Below are positions 10,051 to 24,911 of a stretch of DNA of 64,000 bases, piece after piece; within the stretch, counting starts at the first letter, position 1, and every line of letters starts with the position of its first letter. The translations under genes and the position numbers were made by a program. The notes under the pieces are model-generated. The model did no database searches and was not told where the DNA came from. It worked only from the letters and a program-made list of their open reading frames with translations. Source of the DNA: Haliotis rufescens (taxonomy: Eukaryota); contig NW_025963902.1 in NCBI RefSeq assembly GCF_023055435.1, positions 7,130,001 through 7,194,000 of the forward strand, read 5' to 3'.

Positions 10051-13042
10051 CTTTGTGGATATAGGATATGTATAACTGCCTGATATTATACATATAACTT
10101 TTGTCGGTTGTAATTACGATTTTTGCATTTTGTTTTTATCCATTAACTGTAGCAGAAACCGAGGAGGCCTCAACGGTGACTGTTTTTGTTTTTTTTCATG
10201 CGTAAAACTTACCCGCCAATAACGTCCAGCTGTACAAAAGTGATTATGGTTATTATTATCTTAATTAGTAAAACTTGCAACTAAAAATACGGTATTTTGG
10301 AAAATATCATTTCTGATAAAATAAAAATTTCAGAGTACAAGTATTCCGATCATTGCATCAAAATCCTTTCAAGTTATACGTTTTGGGGGGTATTATTAAC
10401 CGAATCACGGGTAGATTGGTAGAAAATGTACAGCTGGGTGTTATTTCCGGTTTAGTTAATGGGAAAAACACACAGCAAACCTAATTTCTGCAAATAAAAA
10501 AATGTCCAGCAGAAGAGAAAAGACAATTTAAATGGTAAATCGTCAAGTCTGGAAGTAATTTATCTCAAGTTTCCTTGACCAAAAAATTTTTATCACCTGT
10601 TTACGCTGAATTCGCTGAAGGGACTTGATGTAGTTTTTTCACTGTGCATAAGATGATGTTTCTCTTAGAAGTCGTATATCAGGCCCTCCTATGAATATGA
10701 ATGAATAATGCCCTTTCCATACAGATTATCCATGATCAGCAATAATATAGTTCAGTAATGTATTTTGTATGCATTATCGATGTATTTTGATGGGAGTCGA
10801 TTGGAAAACGTATCAGTCATAGAGCTAGATAAATTACTTCGCCCATAATTTCATTCATTGTTAACGTCTTAGAACTCAATATGTTGTATTTGCCCAGTAA
10901 TTGGTGATACTATACGGCTTATAACAAAATTATGTCAGTCGACGCAAACAGTAAGGAATTCTTCTGTGGCTGATTGGCACTTAAGCAATAATATTAATTC
11001 ATATGTATTTTATCAACATACCATTACGAGATCCCGATGCGTTTGTTTTGGCTACCAAACAGTTGCCAAGTTGCTGGGATCTGTTTGGGGGTGGGCGAGA
11101 TGTCAGGCATCTTCAGCGTGGTCGGAGACCATGCCTGACTACTGCCCATTTAATAGTCTGTGATACTGACCCTGAAACAAATATATCCAAAAAAAGCCCA
11201 AGCAAGTCTATATTAGTAGGCAAGTCTAGATTACTGCAGTTTCAGGAAATGACGAGAGTATCTTTGCTCCTTTTTATTATATTTTCTATGAACAGAACTT
11301 AACAACTGTTTGACTAGATGTTAGTCTACCCATATATTTGCTATAACTGATTTAAGAAAACACGTCTTCTACTTTTAGATAACAAATTCTGATGCTCAAT
11401 GCCATGAATTTTATGCTTAAAAATGTTAAAGTCAAGAATTCGAGTCAGACAAACCAAAAGAAACTTCTTAGCTTATCGCTCATTGGTGTATCTCCGCAAT
11501 GTCCCTCACGCTGTCTGTTTCCGGAAGAAAGTGTTCTTATGTAAGTGAGATCGGCTTCTGACGGATACAGCCGAAGTTATTCCGCTGCATTTGACCTAGT
11601 TTCCCATAGAAGCTGTGCACATATTTCGCTAATGACCGCTGTCAAATCCGATAGTGTTCTTTTTCATTCGCATAATTAATGCATTCGGTTCCAATTCAGG
11701 AGCTACCAATGCGCCTTCATTTTAACCCATTCAACGTTTTTATTCCAAATGCTTAGAGTGAGTGAGTTGGGTTCAACGCCGCTTTTAACATTATTCCAGT
11801 CATATCACGGCGTGTCAGCTTAATGTGGGAGGAAAGCCAGAAGTGATGCAGGTCTCAGACGTTTACCACTTTGGTGAAACACACGAGCACGGGTATGGTG
11901 CTGACAAACCCAGAAACATAATTGGGGCGAACCGGGATTCGAACCCACAATCATAGGTTTCTGGCGTGCCCAAGGGACGCAACTCTGCACAGCGAATCGC
12001 GGCGCCTTAGACGACTCGGCCACCCGTGCCCCCTATCCGCGGTCGAATTCAGCTAACATTGTAAGTTATCATGTAAAAAAGACAGCTCTAAATATATAAA
12101 AATACATGGTCAGTTTTAATTAATGGGTTAATGTACATTTAAAACAAAACATACAAAATTACAGCTGCCATGGGATTCATTCTGCACTGAAGGCTGCGAA
12201 AACTGCTTGTGATTTGGTATGTTTGAACCTGTATGTAGCGCGCAAAGCCGGGAAGTCATACACAAAGGCAACACTCAAGTTTAAGTGACAGTACGGCAAA
12301 GATTACAAAATGACGTCGCGAATGATATCCATGGTAGATCATTTCATAACGGCTACTTATGGTGTCTCGTTTGACAGTGATCCATTTATCCATTTAACCG
12401 CACTGACCCAATCCCTAGTTTTCTCTCCTGGAGACCAGCCTTTGGCTGCGCTTGCGAAGCACTGATACAGGCAATTCCATAACGGCGGCCTCCATGAGAC
12501 AAAGAAAAATGGCCTAGCCTATTAGCCTAATGGTTAAAGCGTTCGCTCGTCACGCCGAAGACCTGGGTTCGATTCCCGACATGGGTACAATGTGTGAAGC
12601 CCATTTCTTGTGTCCCCCGCCGTGATGTTGCTGGAATATTCCAAAAAGCGGCGTAAAACCATACTGACTCACTGTTTATAAATGGACTGGACTGTGACGT
12701 CGTTTGAGGGCGCTAATATAACCTTATAATGGTGTACTTAGAAATCAGAAGACATGAAAAGGCACATGGCGATTCACTGTGGAATCAAGCCTCACTAGTG
12801 CACTGTTTGTAAGAAAACATTATCAGGTCATCTGCAGAAACATAATTTATTTTTTTTCTGCTGATTCACACAGGAGTCAAACCTTATCAGTGTGTAGAAT
12901 GTGGGAAAGGGTTCACACAGTCAGGCAGCCTGCAGAAACACATGCATGTACACAGCAGAAGCAACCCTTATCAATGTGTAGAATGTGGGAAAGAGTTCAC
13001 ACATTCAGGTGGCCTGCAGAAACACATGATGATTCATAGTGT

Positions 13043-14983
13043 TAAGACAGCCTTGTTGGGATTCCAACGACTGTCAGGCCTCGGTTTGGGGAATTAGCTA
13101 TTGGGAGCGAGCCTTGAAACAAGAGAGAAGAGAGCTGTGAGGTCCTTAGGGTTTATTCAAGCAAGTGTCATATTATTCAAGTTACATCAATTAATATATA
13201 ATAGTGACGTACAATCATAATAATGATAATAATATGCTAACACATTGTCCATCTAATAAAGGCATAATAATAAAGGCAATGTATTTAAATTGGAGTATGT
13301 ACGGTAACATTATACAACAGATGCAGTATTTACTAGAATAATAACGGTAATGCTAAATAACATTCCTTAACAGCTAAATTGAGTAGTCGTAATATTTTAA
13401 TGGAGCATGTACGGTAGACTGCGCAAACTACTAAGATGAGGAACATGACATTTACTTATGAAAAGACGGTAAACATTAATATTTGTGGTTTCAGTAATAA
13501 TTATCACAACATAATAATTTCGGCTAATACGGAAGGTAAATACTTGATCCAAATAAAGATACGAATGTACGCGGTAGAAGATATAGCTCGGTTTTAGTTA
13601 GTGTCATTATTAGTTTTAGTAGTGATTACTTTGGTGACTACGGTAATGAATCACGGCGGCTATGTTGCTATTGACTACGCGCATTTCCTACATATATACG
13701 GAGCTATACCATAACAGCTAATGGAGTGAATACGGTAATTGTATACTTGAACGGTGCGCGTTTGAATGTACGTTATTATGAAGTATAAAAGATGACTTTT
13801 ACAGTATTTAAATGACTACGGTAATGAAATTGTGGTATAGGCTGTGTTGCAGCGTATGCAACTATATGAGGGACGGGACTCTTTACAATATATTCAAATA
13901 CTTACTTGATGAAGATAAAACCTAAGAAATATGGAATGCGTTGTTATAGCCTATGCTGTAAACGCACACGGAAGGTAAAGCTGCACATATAACCTTTGAT
14001 TGGTGGACTGTCGGAAAGTATGGAATAACCAACCTAGTAATAAATCTTGCTTGAAACAGTTGTGTTAACTCTAGGAACCGTTTTGTGACTAAGCTACATG
14101 TACGCTACGCTACTGCACGGAAATATAAACTGTATATGCATCTGGCATTTTGAACAGATGATGTTAGACATAGAAGGGGAATATAATTATGGATGTCGAA
14201 ATATAGGAGAGAACTATTGGTGCCGCATATTAATGACACATAAACTGGAGGAGCCCACGACGCATTACACTTCAAATAACACTGGGAAGTTACTGTGTAT
14301 TAAACAGTAAATAATATTTATAATGAGCAGTCATTTAGAACTTGTACACAGTAGATTGAGAGTTACAATATGGCAGTACTGATTCAACTTAACTATAACA
14401 TTTTCTAGACAATAATAACAATGAAATAAGAAGTTTAGTCATAAAATAGGAATATTTAAATGTTTCTTACCTTGAAACAAGAGAGAAGAGAGCTGTGAGG
14501 TCCTTAGGGTTTATTCAAGCAAGTGTGCTGAGGACCAACACCCAAGGAGTTATATACCCCCACAGCTCTACTCTTATCACATTAACAATTACTTTGAAGT
14601 TGTAATTTCGGTCTCTGTTATCTGCCCTGGGCTGTCAAAGTTGACTAAACAAAAGCAGGTGGTAAATAGAATGGTATCAGTATTACCTAAGAAGAGTTTA
14701 TTTTAATTACAGTTTAAGATGGTGGTCAAAACCTGCGCCAGCTGGTAACAAAACATTTATCAAGAGAACAAGGGCCGGGGCGGACGTACGCGCCGACTTT
14801 ATCTATGATTACGTAATTTACTGTTCGCGTGAATGAGCTTGCCAAGGAGCAGCCGTCATGGTCGACCAGTGGCGATAAAAACGAGAAATACTGGTCTAGC
14901 GACTTTCGAATTTTAGAATTTCCTAGTTTAAGTTTAATTTGTTAAAAATATAAAAAGTGTAATGAAATATATGCACTGTAACA
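13043..14983 (-). repeat. 3' LTR (1941 bp)
   Basis: Matches 22304-24244 at offset 9261; only two substitutions noticed by eye. Confidence 0.95.
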
Positions 14984-14993
14984 ATACCCCTGT
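14984..14993 (-). other. Short polypurine-tract-like sequence
   Basis: ACAGGGGTAT immediately precedes TGTTACA of the 3' LTR on the minus strand. Confidence 0.55.
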
Positions 14994-15955
14994 GCGTCGT
15001 GGAGCTTTTGTCCTCAAAAGCCAAAAGAAAAGGATTAAAATGAAGCGAATATACATAGATAATCAGAATACAATGATACAATAGATTACGTTGGACATGA
15101 ACAAATGTGTGCATGAAGATAGTTTGATCAGTTGAAAACATAAGGCACACGATTTCCATTACAAAGATTCTGAAACATACCTACATATTAAACTACAAGA
15201 AAAATGACAATTTGAAGTAATGAACAAGCATTTCTGTGAAAAGGAAACCGGTTAACAAGAACATACATAATATGAGGAAAGGTTGTTGTGTGATGAGGGA
15301 GTTTTTAGCGTTCCCCAACAATTTGCCCTGACACTGTCAAACATTTCACATCACGCTAGGTCTACGATTTGAAAGTATCCGTTGTGAAATATTAGGATAT
15401 AGGTGGCAAAGGGGTGCTTAAAGAGTTTGTGAATGTGTGGGAAGTGAGGCACCAGAAGGCGTTTGGATATGCCAATAGGAAGGCACAGAGTGAGTGGAAG
15501 AATTGGAATTGTGGCATACTCAAGTCTTGGAGAAGACAGTTGAGATTTTGAGACAAGGATGAGAAATGCTGCCCAAGGAACAGCCAAGATTCCTAACAGA
15601 ATGGAAACATTGTAGTCTGTTAAGGTGGTGATGACAACGAGAGATTAACGGTAGTTGACGTGTACGTATCTTAGTTAGGTATTGGAGGCAAAGCGAGGTC
15701 ACTCAGGACAGGAGGCACGAATATCAGCCGAACTCAAGGATAGTGGCTCTCCATGATGGACCAAAGACAAAAAGAAACCAAAGTACAAGTCAGATGGGAT
15801 GACCATTGTTGCAGGAAAGTTGTGGCCACAACATTTCACTGCGTAGCACTTATAGAACACAAGGCAATTTGATTACCTGTAGGGGGTGGTCAGAGCTCAT
15901 CTACCTTGACAAATGATGACTTGTTGCCAGGAGGAATAGCATGGAAGGTCAAGAC

Positions 15956-18900
15956 CTATGATTTTGCAAAATATCTGTGTTTCCGTTTCCGTCTGTGACC
16001 AGATCCTGTTCTAAATGTATGGTAATCACTTATCATTTCCGCACTAAGGTTGGAGGCAGGTTCCCAGGTGCGTTGAGGGTAACCTTCCCATTCAATTAGG
16101 TAATGAGTTACTCCTGACTTCTTTTTAGCTTTGTGTATGCGTTTTACAGCATAAAGTTGATCATCTGGTTGGGCAGATGATGTGGGACTCTGTGGAATAG
16201 TGTCAGAGTTATCAGACGAGTGAGGTAGCATAATGGGATCCTCTACGGAAGTGTGCTGTGTTGTGGTAGGGTTGTCAGGATGGGAGGATGTTGACTGAGT
16301 TGGAGTTGATTGATGCTGGGCTGTTTGTGAGGCTTCTCTACGAGGATTGTCAGGCTGGGAGGCCGTCGACTGAGTGGGTGTTGCTAGATGCTGAGCTGGT
16401 TGTGCAGGTTGTCTTCGAGGGGTTGGAGGTGTATAAGTTTTAAGTCTGTTGGCATGAATGAAGGATTTATGTTCTTTGTTTGTGTTAGTGTTCAGTAGTT
16501 TGAAAGTATGGTTAAGACCGATGCGAATGATTCTGTAAGGTCCTATCCATTTCTTTGACAGTTTGGGGGAAAGGCCAGTTTTGACAGTTGGATCAGTCAT
16601 GAGAACCTGATCACCAACTGCAAATGAAGGTTCCTTGGCTCTGACATCCTGAAGATTCTTGCTTTTATCCTGAGCAGCAGACATGTTGTCCTTTGCAAGG
16701 GATTTTGCAACATTCAGATTTTTCAAGAGATCTTGAAGATGACCCTGTGCATCTTTGCCGAGGGTAGATTTAGGCAGCAAGGTTGTGTCAAAAGGAAGAT
16801 TCATTTCCTTTCCAAACAGAAGGTAGTGTGGTGAATACCCTGTAGATTGACAAGGTACATTGCGCATGGCCATCATAACACATGGAATGAGTTTGGCCCA
16901 ATTGGTCTGATCAGGGTCAGCATATGTTCGGAGAGCCTGCTCTATGACACTGTTCCTCCTTTCACACATCCCATTAGTCTGGGGGTGGTAGGACGAAGTG
17001 TAGTAGTGCTTGATATCGAGGAGTTCACAGAGAGCATTTACTAGCTTGGAAGTGAACTGCCTACCTCTGTCAGTAAGAAGAGTACGGGGAGCACCAAACC
17101 GTGAGAAAACCTCAGTGAACAGGATTGATGCAACCTCGGAGGCTTCTTGAGTGCGCATAGGGAAACCTTCTGTCCAGCGTGAGAAGGAATCAACTGCAAG
17201 GAGAACATACTTATAACCTTCCTTAGTCTCAGGCAATGGCCCGAGGATGTCAACATGGAGACGAGAGAATGTGTCCTCAATAGGCATGGGCACCATTGGT
17301 GCTGGCTTAGCATTTGTCCTTCTTTTGGAGCGTTGGCAGTCATCACAGGACTTGACATAATTCTCAATATCCTGGTATAAGCCTGGCCAGTAATACTTTG
17401 TGAGTATTGTCTGACGAGTGGCATCTCGTCCAAGGTGGCAACCACCAGCTTTGGAATCATGGTAGGCAAAAAGAAGCTCTTTGCGACAGCAGACAGGGAC
17501 AGCTAGCTGTGTTACCATAGGAGGGCGATTGTTTTTCTGACCTCGATGCTTTGCATGATAGAAGTGGTACAGAATACCATCACGTATGTCATACTCTTGA
17601 GCAAGGCCAGTTAGACCCTTGACTTGAACATCTGTATAGGTGGAAGGAATTTCACCTTTTTCAATGTAGTCCATGATTGGACAAAGGTCAGGGGATTTAC
17701 GTTGCTTTTCTGCCAAGTCTTTATCATCAAGATCAGTTCCTATAGCAAAGACCATAGGGCCTGAAGGAGGATCGTGAGGACCCGACTTGTAGACAAAGTC
17801 TACAGATATAGAGGATGTTATGTCATCTCTACTGATATCTTCTGATGAGACACTGGGTGAGTCAAGAGTGTCATTGTCAATGTTTGTATGCTTTGGAAAG
17901 TTGTTTTGTGGAGATGAGCATGATTTGGTTGAAGAGGAAGAAGACCTCAGCTGGCTGGAGGGACGAGACATGAATGGTAGTTTGGTGTGGACACTGTTGT
18001 TGGAGGATTTTGTAGCAGTGGTGACCGACTTGTTTGTCTTCTTGTCAGTAGGTGGCATGGGACTTGGATGAGCATGGCTGGCTGGTTTGTGAGATAAGGC
18101 TGTTGAGGGTGTAGACCTCATATTGCCTGCTTTTGAATAAGCATATTGGCGAGTGAAGGAAGTCGAAGGTGTAGACCTCTTGTTGCCTGTATTGGCATTG
18201 GCATAATGGTGAGAAGTGGCAGTCGAGGGTGTAGACCTCTTGTTGCCTGTATTGGGATTGGCATAATGGAGAGAAGTGGCAGTCGAGGGTGTAGACCTCA
18301 TGTTGCCTGCATTGGGATTTGCATAATGGCGAGAAGTGGCAGTCGAGGGTGTAAACCTCATGTTGCCTGTATTGGGATTGGCATAATGGAGAGAAGTGGC
18401 AGTCGAGGGAGTAGGCCTCGTGTTGCCTTGGTGATGAGGGAATGACACTTTGGGGCTGCTTGATGGTGACATCGAATGTGAAGTTGCAGTGGGTAAGAGT
18501 GGAGATGAAGCAGTGGCAGCTACTTGTTCATATGTGCGGGTTGATGAGATGGGTTCTGTTGAAATGGGTGGGGAGGGTATATCATCAGTGTTAGGTTGAT
18601 GTACTTGCTCTGCATGAGGAATGCGAGATAAGGCATCTGCATTTGTGTTGGCTTTGCCTGGCCTGTGTATGATCTCAAAATCATACTCTTGCAGCATGAG
18701 GGACCATCTACTAAGGCGACCAGAGTCATGTTTGGTTTTCTTAAGCCAAGTCAGAGCTTTGTGGTCTGTGTAAACAGAAAATGATCCATTTGCAAGGTAC
18801 ACCCTGAAGTTTTTAATACCTTCTAGGACGGCCAGGCATTCTAGATGTGTGATACCCCAATTCTTTTCAGCAGTATGGAGAGAGCGACCACCATAACATA

Positions 18901-20860
18901 TTACATGTTCTCTACCTTGAGAATCAAGTTGGCCTAAGATGTACCCTATTGCAGTTTGTGATGCATCAGTTGTGAGGATGAAGGGTTGGTTTTGGTCAGG
19001 GTATGCGAGGATAGGAGCAGATGTAAGGGCATGTTTTAGCTTTTCAAATGCCTGTTGACAATTGTATGACCATTCGAAAGATGCATCTTTTTTAAGAAGA
19101 TTGTAAAGAGGGGAGGCAATGCCCGAAAAGTTTGCTACAAATTTCCGATAATATGATGCCAAACCTAGGAAATGGCGCACGTCATGGACATTTTTAGGAG
19201 GTGGAATCTGTGTGACTGAATCTATTTTGGAAGGATCAACATGGATGCCATCTTTGCTGAAGATATGCCCTAAGTAGGTAACTTGTTTTGTCGCGAATTT
19301 ACATTTGCTGGGTTTAAGAGTGAGGCCTGCTTCACTGATCTTTTGGAATACTGCCTTGAGGTGATTCAGATGTTCAGAAAAGGTTTTAGAAAATATTATT
19401 ATGTCGTCGACATATATCAATATGTAACGCCAATTCATCTCTTTTAGTGCCTCTGAAATGGTTTGCTGAAATGCCATAGGAGCATTTTTGAGGCCGAAAG
19501 GAAGGCGATTCCATTCAAAAACACCATCAGGCGTAATGAAGGCGGACTTGTGTTTTGTATCTGGGTGGAGTGGTATTTGCCAAAAGCCACTAGCACAATC
19601 AAGGACACTAAAGATTTTGGCATGGCTGTCACCTACGGCATCAACGACATCTTCAAAACGTGGCAGAGGAAAAAATATAGGCTTAGTAACTGCATCGAGG
19701 CGTCTATAATCTACGGCAAAGCGGTAAGAGCTGTCACGTTTCTTAACCATGACAACAGGTGAGTGCCACTCAGAAGAACTAGGTTGAATGATATTGGCAT
19801 CTAACATTTCTTTTACCTGTCTTGAACATTCTTTTCTAATGGCTGCGTTTTGCCTGTAAAAAGGGAGTCTAATCGGTCTGGCATCACCTGTTTCTATTCT
19901 GTGTTGATGTAAGTGGGTGTGTCCTAATTCTGACCAATCTGAGGCAAAAACTGACCTTTGTGATTGGAGAAATGCACGTAAATGTGTTTGTTGTTCATGT
20001 GTGAGGTCTGCATCACTAAGATCAAAGTCAATGTCCTGTGAATGTGTTGTGTTAGCACTTGTAGTAGTAGGAGGATCAGAATCAGAAGTGTCAGGGAGGT
20101 CAAGGACAGATGTGGGGTCAATCTCTGAGGCTACAGCAACCACTGTTTTTGAATATAAAGTGACATGGCTGTCACTAGCATTAAGCAATCTCATGCAAGC
20201 TGATTTTGGATTGTTGGTTATAAGGCACTTAGCACCATGGAGCTGCATGTCATTTAATGCCGGAACTGGTTCAAGAAGAAAAACTTGACCTTGTTGACAA
20301 TGAGAAATTTTGATGGGAATGTCAGCTTGAGAGTGTGGAGGAATAATTACAGACTTGCATGGTCTTGCGTAGCCTCCATTGATTGATGCCAGGGAGACTG
20401 AAACAAGACCTTCATGTATGTGAAGGCATTTTGAGGGCAGGTCTATAGTGACTTTGTTTAATTCAAGGAAGTCAATGCCTAAGATGAGAGAGTGATGTAA
20501 GTTGTGAAAGACATGAAAGATTTGGGGGAGGTAGATATGCCCTATGTTAATGTCAAGAGAGACAGAGCCTAGCACAGAATGTTTTTCACCACCTACACCT
20601 ATGATTTCAGTTAGGTGAGATGGGCGTAAATGAGAGGGTTTGATGCCAACTTTATTTAAGTAGCCCATGCTGACACAGCTAACTGATGCACCTGTGTCAA
20701 CAAGAGCTGTAGTTCTCACTTGTTTCACCTTGACATGAACAGTGTTCTTTGTCAAGGGAGCCACAAGTGATACAAAGGCTGACTCTTGCCTGACCCTAGA
20801 ACGATGAGTATCAGGTATGAGTCCCTGTGGCTGTCGATATTGTGTATAGTATGCGCGCAT
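15956..20860 (-). CDS. pol: Gypsy Pol: aspartic protease, RT, RNase H, integrase with GPY/F motif and C-terminal chromodomain
   Basis: LVDTGAS; LPFGL...YVDD; LTTDAS; H...H/CDDC plus D-D-E core; KWIGPYRI; YAVKRIH...YLIEWEGY...TWEP. In frame with gag. Confidence 0.95.
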   Translation of the reverse strand: MRAYYTQYRQPQGLIPDTHRSRVRQESAFVSLVAPLTKNTVHVKVKQVRTTALVDTGASVSCVSMGYLNKVGIKPSHLRPSHLTEIIGVGGEKHSVLGSVSLDINIGHIYLPQIFHVFHNLHHSLILGIDFLELNKVTIDLPSKCLHIHEGLVSVSLASINGGYARPCKSVIIPPHSQADIPIKISHCQQGQVFLLEPVPALNDMQLHGAKCLITNNPKSACMRLLNASDSHVTLYSKTVVAVASEIDPTSVLDLPDTSDSDPPTTTSANTTHSQDIDFDLSDADLTHEQQTHLRAFLQSQRSVFASDWSELGHTHLHQHRIETGDARPIRLPFYRQNAAIRKECSRQVKEMLDANIIQPSSSEWHSPVVMVKKRDSSYRFAVDYRRLDAVTKPIFFPLPRFEDVVDAVGDSHAKIFSVLDCASGFWQIPLHPDTKHKSAFITPDGVFEWNRLPFGLKNAPMAFQQTISEALKEMNWRYILIYVDDIIIFSKTFSEHLNHLKAVFQKISEAGLTLKPSKCKFATKQVTYLGHIFSKDGIHVDPSKIDSVTQIPPPKNVHDVRHFLGLASYYRKFVANFSGIASPLYNLLKKDASFEWSYNCQQAFEKLKHALTSAPILAYPDQNQPFILTTDASQTAIGYILGQLDSQGREHVICYGGRSLHTAEKNWGITHLECLAVLEGIKNFRVYLANGSFSVYTDHKALTWLKKTKHDSGRLSRWSLMLQEYDFEIIHRPGKANTNADALSRIPHAEQVHQPNTDDIPSPPISTEPISSTRTYEQVAATASSPLLPTATSHSMSPSSSPKVSFPHHQGNTRPTPSTATSLHYANPNTGNMRFTPSTATSRHYANPNAGNMRSTPSTATSLHYANPNTGNKRSTPSTATSHHYANANTGNKRSTPSTSFTRQYAYSKAGNMRSTPSTALSHKPASHAHPSPMPPTDKKTNKSVTTATKSSNNSVHTKLPFMSRPSSQLRSSSSSTKSCSSPQNNFPKHTNIDNDTLDSPSVSSEDISRDDITSSISVDFVYKSGPHDPPSGPMVFAIGTDLDDKDLAEKQRKSPDLCPIMDYIEKGEIPSTYTDVQVKGLTGLAQEYDIRDGILYHFYHAKHRGQKNNRPPMVTQLAVPVCCRKELLFAYHDSKAGGCHLGRDATRQTILTKYYWPGLYQDIENYVKSCDDCQRSKRRTNAKPAPMVPMPIEDTFSRLHVDILGPLPETKEGYKYVLLAVDSFSRWTEGFPMRTQEASEVASILFTEVFSRFGAPRTLLTDRGRQFTSKLVNALCELLDIKHYYTSSYHPQTNGMCERRNSVIEQALRTYADPDQTNWAKLIPCVMMAMRNVPCQSTGYSPHYLLFGKEMNLPFDTTLLPKSTLGKDAQGHLQDLLKNLNVAKSLAKDNMSAAQDKSKNLQDVRAKEPSFAVGDQVLMTDPTVKTGLSPKLSKKWIGPYRIIRIGLNHTFKLLNTNTNKEHKSFIHANRLKTYTPPTPRRQPAQPAQHLATPTQSTASQPDNPRREASQTAQHQSTPTQSTSSHPDNPTTTQHTSVEDPIMLPHSSDNSDTIPQSPTSSAQPDDQLYAVKRIHKAKKKSGVTHYLIEWEGYPQRTWEPASNLSAEMISDYHTFRTGSGHRRKRKHRYFAKS
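18103..18430 (-). repeat. 60-bp (20-aa) tandem repeat, ~5 copies, between RNase H and integrase
   Basis: Repeated STATS(L/R/H)HYANPN(T/A)GN(M/K)RSTP. Confidence 0.9.
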
Positions 20861-22102
20861 GCATACTTTTGAATGGTGACCTATGCGTGAGCAATAATTA
20901 CAGACTGTATTTCTATGAGGGCAATTGTGAGGGAACCGAAAAAACTCACCACATCCGCGACATCTGCCTCGAAGGTGCTGTGGAATTGGCAGACGTTGAC
21001 TGTAGCTGGAGCTGTACGGGTAGAAGGATGGCGTCTGTTGTTGTTGCTGTGCTGTGTGGTGGGGCTGAGGTGGTGGGACTGGATACTCCTTCTGTGGTGG
21101 CTGATAGTGCTGTGGTGTTGGTTGGTATTGTTCCTGTAGTGGTTGATATTGTTCCTGCCGTATCTGGTATTGATGTTGTAGTGGTTGGTACTGCTGTGGT
21201 GTTGGTTGGTATGGTTCCCTTGGTGGCTGGTATGGTTCCTGTGGTGGCTGGTATGGTTCTTGTGGTGACTGGTATGGTTCCTGTGGTGACTGGTATGGTT
21301 CCTGTGGTGGTTAGTATGGTTCCTGTGGTGACTGGTATGGTTCCTGTGGTGGTTGGTATTGTTCCTGTGGTGACTGGTATGGATCCTGCTGTGGTTGGTA
21401 CTGCTGTGGCGACTGGTATGGATCCTCTTGTGGTTGGTATGGTTCCTGTTGTGGTTGCTGGTGGTATCTTGGTGATGGGGAGGGTGGCTGTTGCTGGACC
21501 TGGGGCTCGTGCTGCTGATGGTGGGATGAGGGAGTTGCTGATTGTACAGCACAGACCTTGTTTGTAGTGATCAGCATGGTCACCAAGTTCGTTAATTGCT
21601 CAACTTGTTGGACCAAGCTGACCTCTTCCTTGCTTGGGGCCTGCGATTGTACAGCCAGTTGGGCATGGTGACGAACCTCATCCAGGGTCAATGGCTCCTT
21701 CATATACACCCACTGCTTAATCTGTGGGAGTAGCCCATTGATTGCAATGGCTACTATCACAGATTGTGGTAAGCAGGAGTGTAACGCGGATGCTTGGACC
21801 CTGGTGATGAAGTCTCCAACGTCCTCCTGTTCCTTCTGTGTCATATCAAGAAGACTCAAATTGAAGGCTGATGAACTGCGAAATCGTTGCTGAAAGGCCG
21901 CTTTCAGCAAGTGGATGTCAAGCTGTGTGTGCGCAGGCAGGTCCCTGAACCATACTTTAGCAGCTCCGTCCAGGTAGAAGGGTAGAATTCTACAGGATTG
22001 GGTGTCTGTGTGACCATGGAGGAAGTTGAAGTTGTAGAAATCTGCCCACCAACTTTCAGCATCCTGCTGACCTGTGTATTTGGGGAGATGTATCTGTGCC
22101 AT
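20861..22102 (-). pseudogene. gag: Gypsy Gag (capsid-like domain, Q/P/Y-rich repeats, zinc knuckle) with premature TAA at 21311-21313
   Basis: ORF 21311-22102 has a retrotransposon-gag-like FYLDGAAKVWF segment. Past the TAA the frame stays open through CRGC...HNC and CNYCSRIGHHSKVC into the pol ATG. Confidence 0.88.
21070..21480 (-). repeat. 21-bp (7-aa) tandem repeat in gag
   Basis: Repeated PQEPYQ(S/P) heptads. Confidence 0.9.
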
Positions 22103-22290
22103 TACTGGGGGTTGTTGCTGGGTAAGATAAGACTGACTGTGTTGTTGCTTCTGTAGGGGACGATGGTGTCAGCAGGCATAGTGTGGTGTCAAGCTGTGGA
22201 GGTGGTGGTGGTAGTGTGGAGTCAGGTACAGGTAACGTCACAGTCTCAACTTGTAGTTCACAAGGCTGGCTCCAGGCACCGAGGATCGAA

Positions 22291-22301
22291 CGTCTCCACC
22301 A
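22291..22301 (-). other. Primer-binding site, tRNA-Ala-like
   Basis: TGGTGGAGACG two nt inside the 5' LTR, complementary to a tRNA 3' end ...TCTCCACCA of the kind typical of tRNA-Ala. The isoacceptor is inferred. Confidence 0.7.
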
Positions 22302-22303
22302 AT

Positions 22304-24244
22304 TAAGACAGCCTTGTTGGGATTCCAACGACTGTCAGGCCTCGGTTTGGGGAATTAGCTATTGGGAGCGAGCCTTGAAACAAGAGAGAAGAGAGCTGTG
22401 AGGTCCTTAGGGTTTATTCAAGCAAGTGTCATATTATTCAAGTTACATCAATTAATATATAATAGTGACGTACAATCATAATAATGATAATAATATGCTA
22501 ACACATTGTCCATCTAATAAAGGCATAATAATAAAGGCAATGTATTTAAATTGGAGTATGTACGGTAACATTATACAACAGATGCAGTATTTACTAGAAT
22601 AATAACGGTAATGCTAAATAACATTCCTTAACAGCTAAATTGAGTAGTCGTAATATTTTAATGGAGCATGTACGGTAGACTGCGCAAACTACTAAGATGA
22701 GGAACATGACATTTACTTATGAAAAGACGGTAAACATTAATATTTGTGGTTTCAGTAATAATTATCACAACATAATAATTTCGGCTAATACGGAAGGTAA
22801 ATAATTGATCCAAATAAAGATACGAATGTACGCGGTAGAAGATATAGCTCGGTTTTAGTTAGTGTCATTATTAGTTTTAGTAGTGATTACTTTGGTGACT
22901 ACGGTAATGAATCACGGCGGCTATGTTGCTATTGACTACGCGCATTTCCTACATATATACGGAGCTATACCATAACAGCTAATGGAGTGAATACGGTAAT
23001 TGTATACTTGAACGGTGCGCGTTTGAATGTACGTTATTATGAAGTATAAAAGATGACTTTTACAGTATTTAAATGACTACGGTAATGAAATTGTGGTATA
23101 GGCTGTGTTGCAGCGTATGCAACTATATGAGGGACGGGACTCTTTACAATATATTCAAATACTTACTTGATGAAGATAAAACCTAAGAAATATGGAATGC
23201 GTTGTTATAGCCTATGCTGTAAACGCACACGGAAGGTAAAGCTGCACATATAACCTTTGATTGGTGGACTGTCGGAAAGTATGGAATAACCAACCTAGTA
23301 ATAAATCTTGCTTGAAACAGTTGTGTTAACTCTAGGAACCGTTTTGTGACTAAGCTACATGTACGCTACGCTACTGCACGGAAATATAAACTGTATATGC
23401 ATCTGGCATTTTGAACAGATGATGTTAGACATAGAAGGGGAATATAATTATGGATGTCGAAATATAGGAGAGAACTATTGGTGCCGCATATTAATGACAC
23501 ATAAACTGGAGGAGCCCACGACGCATTACACTTCAAATAACACTGGGAAGTTACTGTGTATTAAACAGTAAATAATATTTATAATGAGCAGTCATTTAGA
23601 ACTTGTACACAGTAGATTGAGAGTTACAATATGGCAGTACTGATTCAACTTAACTATAACATTTTCTAGACAATAATAACAATGAAATAAGAAGTTTAGT
23701 CATAAAATAGGAATATTTAAATGTTTCTTACCTTGAAACAAGAGAGAAGAGAGCTGTGAGGTCCTTAGGGTTTATTCAAGCAAGTGTGCTGAGGACCAAC
23801 ACCCAAGGAGTTATATACCCCCACAGCTCTACTCTTATCACATTAACAATTACTTTGAAGTTGTAATTTCGGTCTCTGTTATCTGCCCTGGGCTGTCAAA
23901 GTTGACTACACAAAAGCAGGTGGTAAATAGAATGGTATCAGTATTACCTAAGAAGAGTTTATTTTAATTACAGTTTAAGATGGTGGTCAAAACCTGCGCC
24001 AGCTGGTAACAAAACATTTATCAAGAGAACAAGGGCCGGGGCGGACGTACGCGCCGACTTTATCTATGATTACGTAATTTACTGTTCGCGTGAATGAGCT
24101 TGCCAAGGAGCAGCCGTCATGGTCGACCAGTGGCGATAAAAACGAGAAATACTGGTCTAGCGACTTTCGAATTTTAGAATTTCCTAGTTTAAGTTTAATT
24201 TGTTAAAAATATAAAAAGTGTAATGAAATATATGCACTGTAACA
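22304..24244 (-). repeat. 5' LTR (1941 bp), TG...TA termini, TATATAA at 23817-23811
   Basis: Direct repeat of 13043-14983, adjacent to the PBS. Confidence 0.95.
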
Positions 24245-24911
24245 GTGTTTATAAATTGACTGGACTGTGACGTCACACAATTCGCGAAAAATCGCGTTGA
24301 ATATGGCCGTTTGAGGGCGCTAATATAACCTTATAATGGTATACTTAGAAATACTAAATAGTGTACGAAATGTGTCATTTTTCTGGGTACGAATATTCCA
24401 CTGGTACGAAATGTCTGGTGTTTTCCCGCAGTACTAATTCGTTTGGGGTATGAAATTACCACAAACAGCTATTATCAGTGTGTTAAATGTGGGAAAAACA
24501 TTAACAAAATCAGGTCTTACATCATGATCCATAACACATCACCAACTTGTGTATAGTTTGTTTGTTGTTTAACGCCGCACTCAGAAATATTCAAGCTATA
24601 TGACGGCGGTCTGTAAATAATCGAGTATGGACCAGACAATCCAGTGATTAATATCATGGGCATCGATCGATCCACGCAATTGGGATCCATGACATGCATC
24701 AACCAAGTCAGCGAACCTGACCACCCGAACCCGTTAGTCGCCTTTTACGGCAAACATGGGTTGCTGAAGACCTATTATACCCCGGATCTTCACGGGTCTC
24801 AGCCCTCGTTATTGTTGGTGTTCTTGTGGAAACATCTTTTGAAAATGCATTATCATGATAAAAGACAACTCTTTTGTTTTCAGTGAACACCATAACATCC
24901 ACAAGTTAACA

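Follow-up and report, generated by a model that had tools for sequence, protein, structure and literature searches.

How can an LTR retrotransposon keep an apparent intron within its own LTRs? Loss of introns is regarded as the hallmark of reverse transcription, and HUSH recognises invading elements by their lack of introns (PMC8770142). The question is raised by a minus-strand Ty3/gypsy element at 13043-24244 of the window, i.e., the whole 64,000-nt stretch of Haliotis rufescens DNA analysed here (contig NW_025963902.1, positions 7,130,001 to 7,194,000). The element lies within a tandem array of C2H2 zinc-finger genes, and its features are listed in Table 1.

Each LTR contains the same 57-bp block twice. 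All four copies (23731-23787, 22373-22429, 14470-14526, and 13112-13168, minus strand) are 100% identical, and the spacing from block 1 to block 2 is 1358 nt in both LTRs. The coordinates given in a preliminary description were all found to be correct when re-verified on the sequence, and the TATATAA, placed there about 30 nt before block 1, lies at exactly that distance. Block 1 terminates in CAAG/GTAAGA, and block 2 in a pyrimidine tract followed by CAAG/GCTCGC, the acceptor being 70 nt away from the LTR end. The size of 57 bp given earlier holds for the repeat but not for the predicted exon: the 57th base is a G common to the start of the intron and exon 2, and the predicted exon is therefore 56 nt long. 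A canonical LTR has one R and a strand-transfer joint at the promoter; here, there are two copies, and the variable joint lies at block 2 (see below).

Table 1. Features of the element (positions in the window).
Feature	Position	Strand	Remark
5' LTR	22304..24244	-	1941 bp, TG...TA ends
U3 promoter part	23788..24244	-	upstream of TATA-positioned block
TATA box TATATAA	23811..23817	-	30 nt before block 1
Predicted U3:block-1 hairpin, 5' LTR DNA copy	23743..23835	-	z -4.1; RNA starting at block 1 cannot form hairpin
Block 1 (predicted first exon, from start site up to donor)	23732..23787	-	AATAAA at 23776-23771
Predicted GT-AG intron	22374..23731	-	1358 nt, 34% GC, 28 ATGs; final 56 nt = block 2; splicing inferred
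Hypervariable intron/block-2 joint	22426..22441	-	putative landing point of minus-strand strong-stop DNA
Block 2, putative functional R, copy of exon 1	22374..22429	-	supplies AATAAA (22418-22413), pyrimidine tract, acceptor AG
U5, start of predicted exon 2	22304..22373	-	70 nt
Primer-binding site TGGTGGAGA	22293..22301	-	
gag frame	21311..22102	-	263 aa, first long-frame ATG to in-frame stop in Gln/Pro-rich repeat of window copy
Remaining gag-pol frame	15956..21310	-	protease, RT, RNase H, integrase, chromodomain (Ty3/gypsy order)
Polypurine tract AGGGG	14987..14991	-	short, ahead of 3' LTR
3' LTR	13043..14983	-	layout as in 5' LTR
Predicted U3:block-1 hairpin, 3' LTR	14482..14574	-	sequence as in 5' LTR; sole place where RNA has both arms
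Block 2 of 3' LTR	13113..13168	-	AATAAA at 13157-13152; predicted RNA 3' end ~13140-13125, before acceptor AG
Target-site duplication ACAC	13039..13042	-	partner copy 24245-24248

The element is a young Ty3/gypsy element. Its LTRs are 99.9% identical (two differing positions over 1941 bp) and end in TG...TA, not TG...CA. It shares direct LTRs, a primer-binding site (PBS; presumably a match to tRNA-Ala), a polypurine tract (PPT), a 4-bp target duplication, and the pol order PR-RT-RH-IN with the mollusc lineage of Ty3/gypsy (Metaviridae) that bears an integrase chromodomain, and a chromodomain is present at its integrase C terminus (PF00385, E 1.4e-6). It is a chromodomain-bearing Ty3/gypsy element and is not assigned to the chromovirus clade, the RT tree being one without reference chromoviruses. 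In this quick tree (midpoint root), its RT groups with gypsy elements, alongside mollusc proteins. The nearest named proteins are from Haliotis, Pinctada, and Mytilus, with the closest homologue in Haliotis rufescens itself (75% over the searched region) and bivalve proteins at 53-59%. What sets the element apart from other Ty3/gypsy elements is its LTR, which reads U3-R-intron-R-U5, with a predicted start site 1.4 kb upstream of the strand-transfer R.

Some details of the window copy may be added. An in-frame stop (21311-21313) ends gag within a Gln/Pro/Tyr-rich repeat, despite the 99.9% identity of the LTRs. The idea of stop-codon read-through from gag into pol was abandoned, because sister copies have a single open frame of ~1960-2210 aa. 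A 60-nt tandem repeat (18089-18428) codes for an insert, rich in Ser and Thr, that separates RNase H from integrase, and about 970 nt of 3' non-coding sequence (15000-15955), without any frame of 100 aa, separate pol from the PPT. The AT flanks are symmetric at the PPT and the PBS, with the LTR ends at 22304-22305 and 13043-13044; the LTRs of sister families end in CA or TA.

Twenty elements were drawn from an RT search of the host genome, and their LTRs were compared with themselves. Eight families with the layout were found, with RTs 66-100% identical and LTRs that are mostly unalignable; a BLAST match was obtained in only four of the 28 pairs of LTRs among them, every one at the block. The seven families other than that of the window (RT 66-80% identical) have a near-identical repeat in the LTR, with blocks of 43-81 nt and introns of 664-1982 nt; the first copy ends in AAG/GTAAG, and the second in a pyrimidine tract and AAG/G, 30-120 nt before the LTR end. 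The repeat starts 30-31 nt after the TATA box in seven of the eight families, and 25 nt after it in one, where the match extends further upstream. A ninth family (L103) came from a motif-directed scan of metagenome contigs, and has an RT identity of 53%, a 66-nt block, the donor CAG/GTGAGA, and a 479-nt intron. It was the only one of 80 metagenome loci with the layout, and the 79 misses say little, being mostly short or distant loci (34-55% RT identity) with the presence of LTRs unchecked.

In all nine families, block 1 ends in AG/GTRAG and block 2 in a pyrimidine tract and AG, i.e., the conserved donor and acceptor of a GT-AG intron, with introns ranging from 479 to 1982 nt. Each of the nine also has a poly(A)-type hexamer, 38-68 nt ahead of the acceptor; in family B80 its sole position is in the intron, immediately ahead of block 2, and block 1 has no AATAAA. 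YTRAY occurs within 40 nt of the acceptor in two of eight families, a clear branch point being absent from that span in most. Because the repeat begins about 30 nt after the TATA box and stops at the splice junction, it may be equated with a predicted exon 1. In the quick RT tree (midpoint root), the eight families form one clade (support 99), and L103 belongs, together with bivalve proteins, to a wider group (91) that excludes family E. The duplication is absent from all five copies of family E (LTRs of 907-949 bp, RT identity 54%), and a second protein search of the genome gave no further families. One locus (F83, L096/L097) has no LTR pair, and in another (D67 C46) the 3' LTR is cut.

Pattern searches of the genome with the junctions of the window's family gave 56 block-1 and 48 block-2 matches, and none with reversed control patterns. 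Together with the layout in eight other families, these numbers are not explained by chance. Judging from these comparisons, the layout is old, kept, and family-wide, not a one-off or a chance duplication, and the earlier reading of the segment as intron-like is borne out. Intron length in family B2 (L062-L067) varies via a tandem repeat of ~123-134 nt, the splice signals being constant. The motif scan was dominated by a host minisatellite (L091:6300-7800), the unit of which includes CAAGGTAAG, a donor-like motif.

A DNA search, in which 40 of 273 candidates were scored, gave at least 28 near-full-length LTRs of 93-100% identity, including solo LTRs with target duplications. A survey of family copies and solo LTRs had been suggested in the preliminary description; the long form is the norm in it, and a form of ~583 bp without the intron is a scattered minority. 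Twelve of the 56 block-1 matches are such intron-less LTRs, the remaining 44 having been inspected in part. In a U3 tree of 31 LTRs, which is of low resolution, the eight short ones are dispersed among the long ones. In family C75, five of 30 examined loci are short and two are unclassed. Both LTRs are short in three elements (L044, L050, and L051), and the short form can therefore arise before integration. In one element (L052, G000:C1:47816800-47826700), the 5' LTR is short and the 3' LTR long, and the single block of the short LTR has a variant seen in block 2 of the long one. Tandem elements sharing LTRs, with three to four LTRs in a row, also occur in families A and C75 (L016-L018, L019/L024, and G000:C614 174-198 kb).

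The point at which the strong-stop DNA lands may be recognised by its scars. In HIV-1, the minus-strand transfer joint gains a G just upstream of the start site by cap copying, together with slips of 1-3 nt (PMC12172438). Among 22 LTRs, the 12-nt window over the intron/block-2 joint has the highest entropy of 1930 windows (2.97 bits; median 1.05), the window over the U3/block-1 joint having 0.53 bits. The joint before block 2 is of 15 types in 29 loci (three unclassifiable matches were dropped), and that before block 1 is identical in 22 of 26 loci, a constancy that selection alone could maintain at a joint sitting in the promoter; these and the following counts are of related copies, not independent events, and LTR pairs are counted twice in the pattern lists. 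Among the listed matches, the base preceding block 2 is G in 27 and C in 21 of 48, with C/G pairs on several backgrounds, and the base preceding block 1 is C in 53 and G in two of 56. Both G cases are short LTRs, in which block 1 would be the only landing site, matching their G at this position. The other families are similar: in C75, G precedes block 2 in 12 of 33 matches and C precedes block 1 in 32 of 32; in B2, G precedes block 2 in four of five; and in B80, the intron/block-2 joint varies in length. The bases before block 2 vary freely, at times copying those before block 1 (GC in L022; ACTTC in two of 33 C75 matches).

These scars, small indels and C-to-G changes at the intron/block-2 joint, make it likely that the template RNA was spliced at its 5' end and ended in block 2 of the 3' LTR. 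Strong-stop DNA ends at the start site, yet it appears joined to the intron end; the template would thus have had exon 1 directly on U5, i.e., it would have been spliced, and the RNA 3' end would have had to contain the intron and part of block 2. The packaged genome had been proposed to be unspliced, and the scars point to the opposite. Copy-specific variants common to both blocks of one LTR are found in several copies (L005, L020, L013, L057, C468 of family B2, and L188/L195 of C75). In L006, L010, and L011, variants are confined to one or the other of the two blocks, and these would need new mutation or jumps between two RNAs. Linkage (r2) is 0.06 between the 3' part of the intron and U5 and 0.11 between U3 and the 5' part of the intron, recombination being spread along the whole LTR and swamping any breakpoint at block 2.

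When 60 nt of U3 and block 1 are folded together, a long hairpin around the start site is predicted in all nine families, despite their differing sequences (z = -4.1, -5.7, -4.6, -5.5, -4.3, -4.1, -2.2, -6.3, and -4.9). Neither block 1 alone nor the intron with block 2 gives a z below -1.4 in any of them. In the hairpin, 20-44 bases of U3 are paired with block 1 or with the bases immediately before it, and the donor is clearly more paired with U3 in only two of the nine families. A test of the arm duplex in fixed narrow windows was passed by four of the nine families, the fold of the whole region being the more telling. As only the RNA of the 3' LTR has both arms, the predicted hairpin is limited to the 3' LTR copy. 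It would hide a U-rich tract needed by the poly(A) site or the acceptor, and would keep strong-stop DNA off block 1. That the LTR segment bears on the choice of poly(A) site, as suggested in the preliminary description, is likely; for the means of control, the evidence probably points more to the U3-dependent hairpin than to U1 at the donor.

Among the assembled contig sets, X1, X2, and X3 are RNA-like by guess and have no cover of the host flank, and X15 is likely DNA. The contigs of X1, X2, X3, X6, and X15 break at the repeated block, and none spans 23732-22373, the start site, or the poly(A) end. U5 is on one unbranched contig with the PBS and gag in X1, X2, and X3, at a depth matching that of gag (13.5 in X3), and the U3 and intron contigs are mostly deeper than it in these sets. 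The depths in X2 (U3 65.4, intron 60.9, U5 14.2) fit splicing, and those in X1 (U3 52.2, intron 63.7 and 50.7, U5 11.6) fit splicing or a retained 5' intron. In X2, the entire intron is covered by a single contig that also includes 30 nt of block 2. The X15 contigs are broken at the LTR end, and their depth over U5 is that of the LTRs. The pattern in X1-X3 is a weak hint of an RNA ending in block 2 of the 3' LTR, contig depth being unable to rank gene parts. The predicted RNA 3' end in Table 1 is based on spacing plus this hint. A search for retroposed copies that end in a block and bear a poly(A) tail gave no matches, an outcome that is uninformative either way.

Three small-RNA runs (X19-X21) cover the leader and gag, with reads too short to report on splicing. 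They are dominated by a 30-nt sense RNA (22266-22295, minus strand) with its 5' end inside the PBS and A as its tenth base (731 molecules in X20 and 119 in X21); antisense small RNAs beginning with U at 22146 and 22032 are also present. These small RNAs look like the products of piRNA ping-pong aimed at the primer site.

Taken together, these LTRs follow a conserved design, most probably one with a self-regenerating intron, in which the RNA would be spliced at its 5' end and the intron rebuilt in each reverse transcription. Transcription would start at block 1, 30 nt after the TATA box, and splicing of the 5' LTR intron would give cap-exon 1-U5-PBS and take out the poly(A) signal of block 2 as well as 28 upstream ATGs. 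The cap-proximal 5' intron would outcompete this signal through cap- and U1-dependent effects. In the RNA of the 3' LTR, U3 is predicted to pair with block 1 and hide the U-rich tract (and, in one or two families, the donor); the RNA would read through the intron and be cut and polyadenylated in block 2, 10-30 nt past the AATAAA. The cut would precede the acceptor AG, so that the 3' intron copy could not be spliced. Strong-stop DNA (U5 and exon 1) would then jump to block 2, as the genomic scars suggest, and the intron, block 1, and U3 would be copied after it. The product of this jump, U3-block 1-intron-block 2-U5, would be the long LTR restored, and with block 2 rewritten from block 1 in every cycle, the blocks would stay identical. 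Splicing had been expected to yield an LTR of 583 bp; a spliced RNA cut in block 2 of the 3' LTR would regenerate the long one instead, and the scars sit where this predicts. The intron-less LTRs may arise when strong-stop DNA jumps to block 1 instead, or by a block-to-block deletion. They may be handicapped, as their only R lies inside the hairpin, which may explain the recurrent loss of the intron without takeover. An old mollusc Ty3/gypsy clade as a whole may have a spliced genomic RNA, a sequence of 45-80 nt that serves as exon 1, acceptor, poly(A) signal, and transfer target, and a hairpin confined to the 3' LTR as the switch.

Other explanations of the scars and of the block identity must be weighed. 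RT often deletes direct repeats. If only the mRNA were spliced and the packaged RNA were not, RT could move within one RNA from block 2 across to block 1, leaving out the 5' intron, and then jump to the 3' block 2, which predicts the same scars and the same block identity. The depths in X1 are compatible with a retained 5' intron, and separate RNA pools are known for BARE (PMC3735527). This course of events nevertheless seems unlikely, because the extra hop would be needed in nearly every cycle, or else the scars would shift to U3/block 1, and because it does not account for the exact coincidence of repeat end and splice junction in nine families. It is hard to credit that the genomic RNA starts at a second promoter just before block 2 (giving U3-R-U5 with a long U3), block 1 starting a separate spliced mRNA. 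Cap scars at block 2 would be expected in that case too, family A has AT-rich, TATA-like runs 25-35 nt ahead of block 2, and BARE1 has separate transcript classes (PMC3735527). Two promoters, however, would provide no means of keeping block 1 equal to block 2 or of sharing copy-specific variants between them, and freely varying bases before block 2, some copying those before block 1, are what would be expected of DNA made from RNA started at block 1.

In the model of the preliminary description, the genome is unspliced and has an R or U5 of 1.4 kb, a spliced mRNA serves for protein, U1 at the donor sets the choice of poly(A) site, and selection keeps the duplication. The strong donor directly after an AATAAA agrees with it, and U1 control of LTR poly(A) sites has been shown in foamy virus (PMC3694450). 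The model predicts scars at U3/block 1, however, and they are found at intron/block 2, by which it is largely refuted; moreover, it has nothing to hold the two blocks identical while whole LTRs diverge past alignment, and block 1 of family B80 has no AATAAA. It is therefore given very little weight. The least credible possibility, to be dismissed almost entirely, is a functionless duplication by a chance template switch. Integrated copies with both LTRs short (L044, L050, and L051) do exist, but nine families of different sequences keep the TATA spacing, the donor, the acceptor, the poly(A) hexamer, and the hairpin, which refutes chance as the explanation.

Known systems share parts of the proposed self-regenerating design. 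In split-intron retroviral vectors, reverse transcription moves a splice signal from LTR to LTR and thereby creates an intron; these vectors are engineered, work once, and are not self-renewing. The HTLV-1 viral genome is unspliced. Its R-U5 'LTR intron' has, as here, a donor and an acceptor inside the LTR and is spliced in vector transcripts, but the accessible part of that report describes no duplicated exon (10.1101/2023.01.28.526022). In HIV-1, the U3-R joint is at the promoter, whereas in the mollusc element the joint is at the intron end; the G change and the slips are common to both (PMC12172438). The foamy virus LTR resembles the present one in having a donor inside both LTRs and a distinct fold in the 3' LTR that switches the use of donor and poly(A) site (PMC3694450). 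It differs in having, as far as the available part of the source describes it, a single R, with neither an acceptor-bearing R duplicate nor an intron rebuilt by strand transfer (PMC3694450). Moreover, the foamy virus fold activates the local poly(A) site, whereas here the U3-dependent fold of the 3' LTR, obtained as a prediction, would hide block 1 and let block 2 take over (PMC3694450). With the donor clearly covered in only two of nine families, the analogy appears to be a partial one.

BARE1/BARE2 are LTR retrotransposons that also have splicing and distinct classes of RNA; their spliced RNA serves as a sub-genomic message for gag, and the RNA that is packaged lacks a cap, whereas here the scars point to a capped, spliced template (PMC3735527). 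Penelope-like elements likewise retain a spliced cap-proximal intron, which is 75 bp long, lies 46 bp from the start, and is required for expression (PMC2377424). They are, however, not LTR elements, and their pseudo-LTRs are not made by reverse transcription, the available part of that paper giving no mechanism of regeneration (PMC2377424); in place of a PLE-type RT, a GIY-YIG endonuclease, and pseudo-LTRs, the present element has an integrase and true LTRs. An LTR intron rebuilt by strand transfer was not found described in the literature searched (Repbase, Dfam, most subscription journals, and supplements lay outside its scope). The replication logic is apparently undescribed so far, the element itself being of a known kind (Ty3/gypsy).

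If the proposed replication cycle is true, the LTR keeps its intron though the genomic RNA is spliced, breaking the rule of intron loss by simple geometry, and the promoter is uncoupled from R. Integrating vectors lose introns during production, and a design principle for such vectors is suggested. The annotation of long LTRs would be affected as to the positions of U3, R, and U5. With its self-renewing intron, the element may also resemble a host gene to silencing systems that target transcripts lacking introns. The cycle would further provide a route for the persistence of introns in retroelements, a question that is open for Penelope in the available part of the source (PMC2377424).

As to the host locus, the window (1-64000) consists of tandem units of ~11.4 kb, and each unit contains one C2H2 zinc-finger gene, encoded in a single frame and at most 547 aa long. 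The units are nearly identical to each other, and the element is inserted in one of them only.
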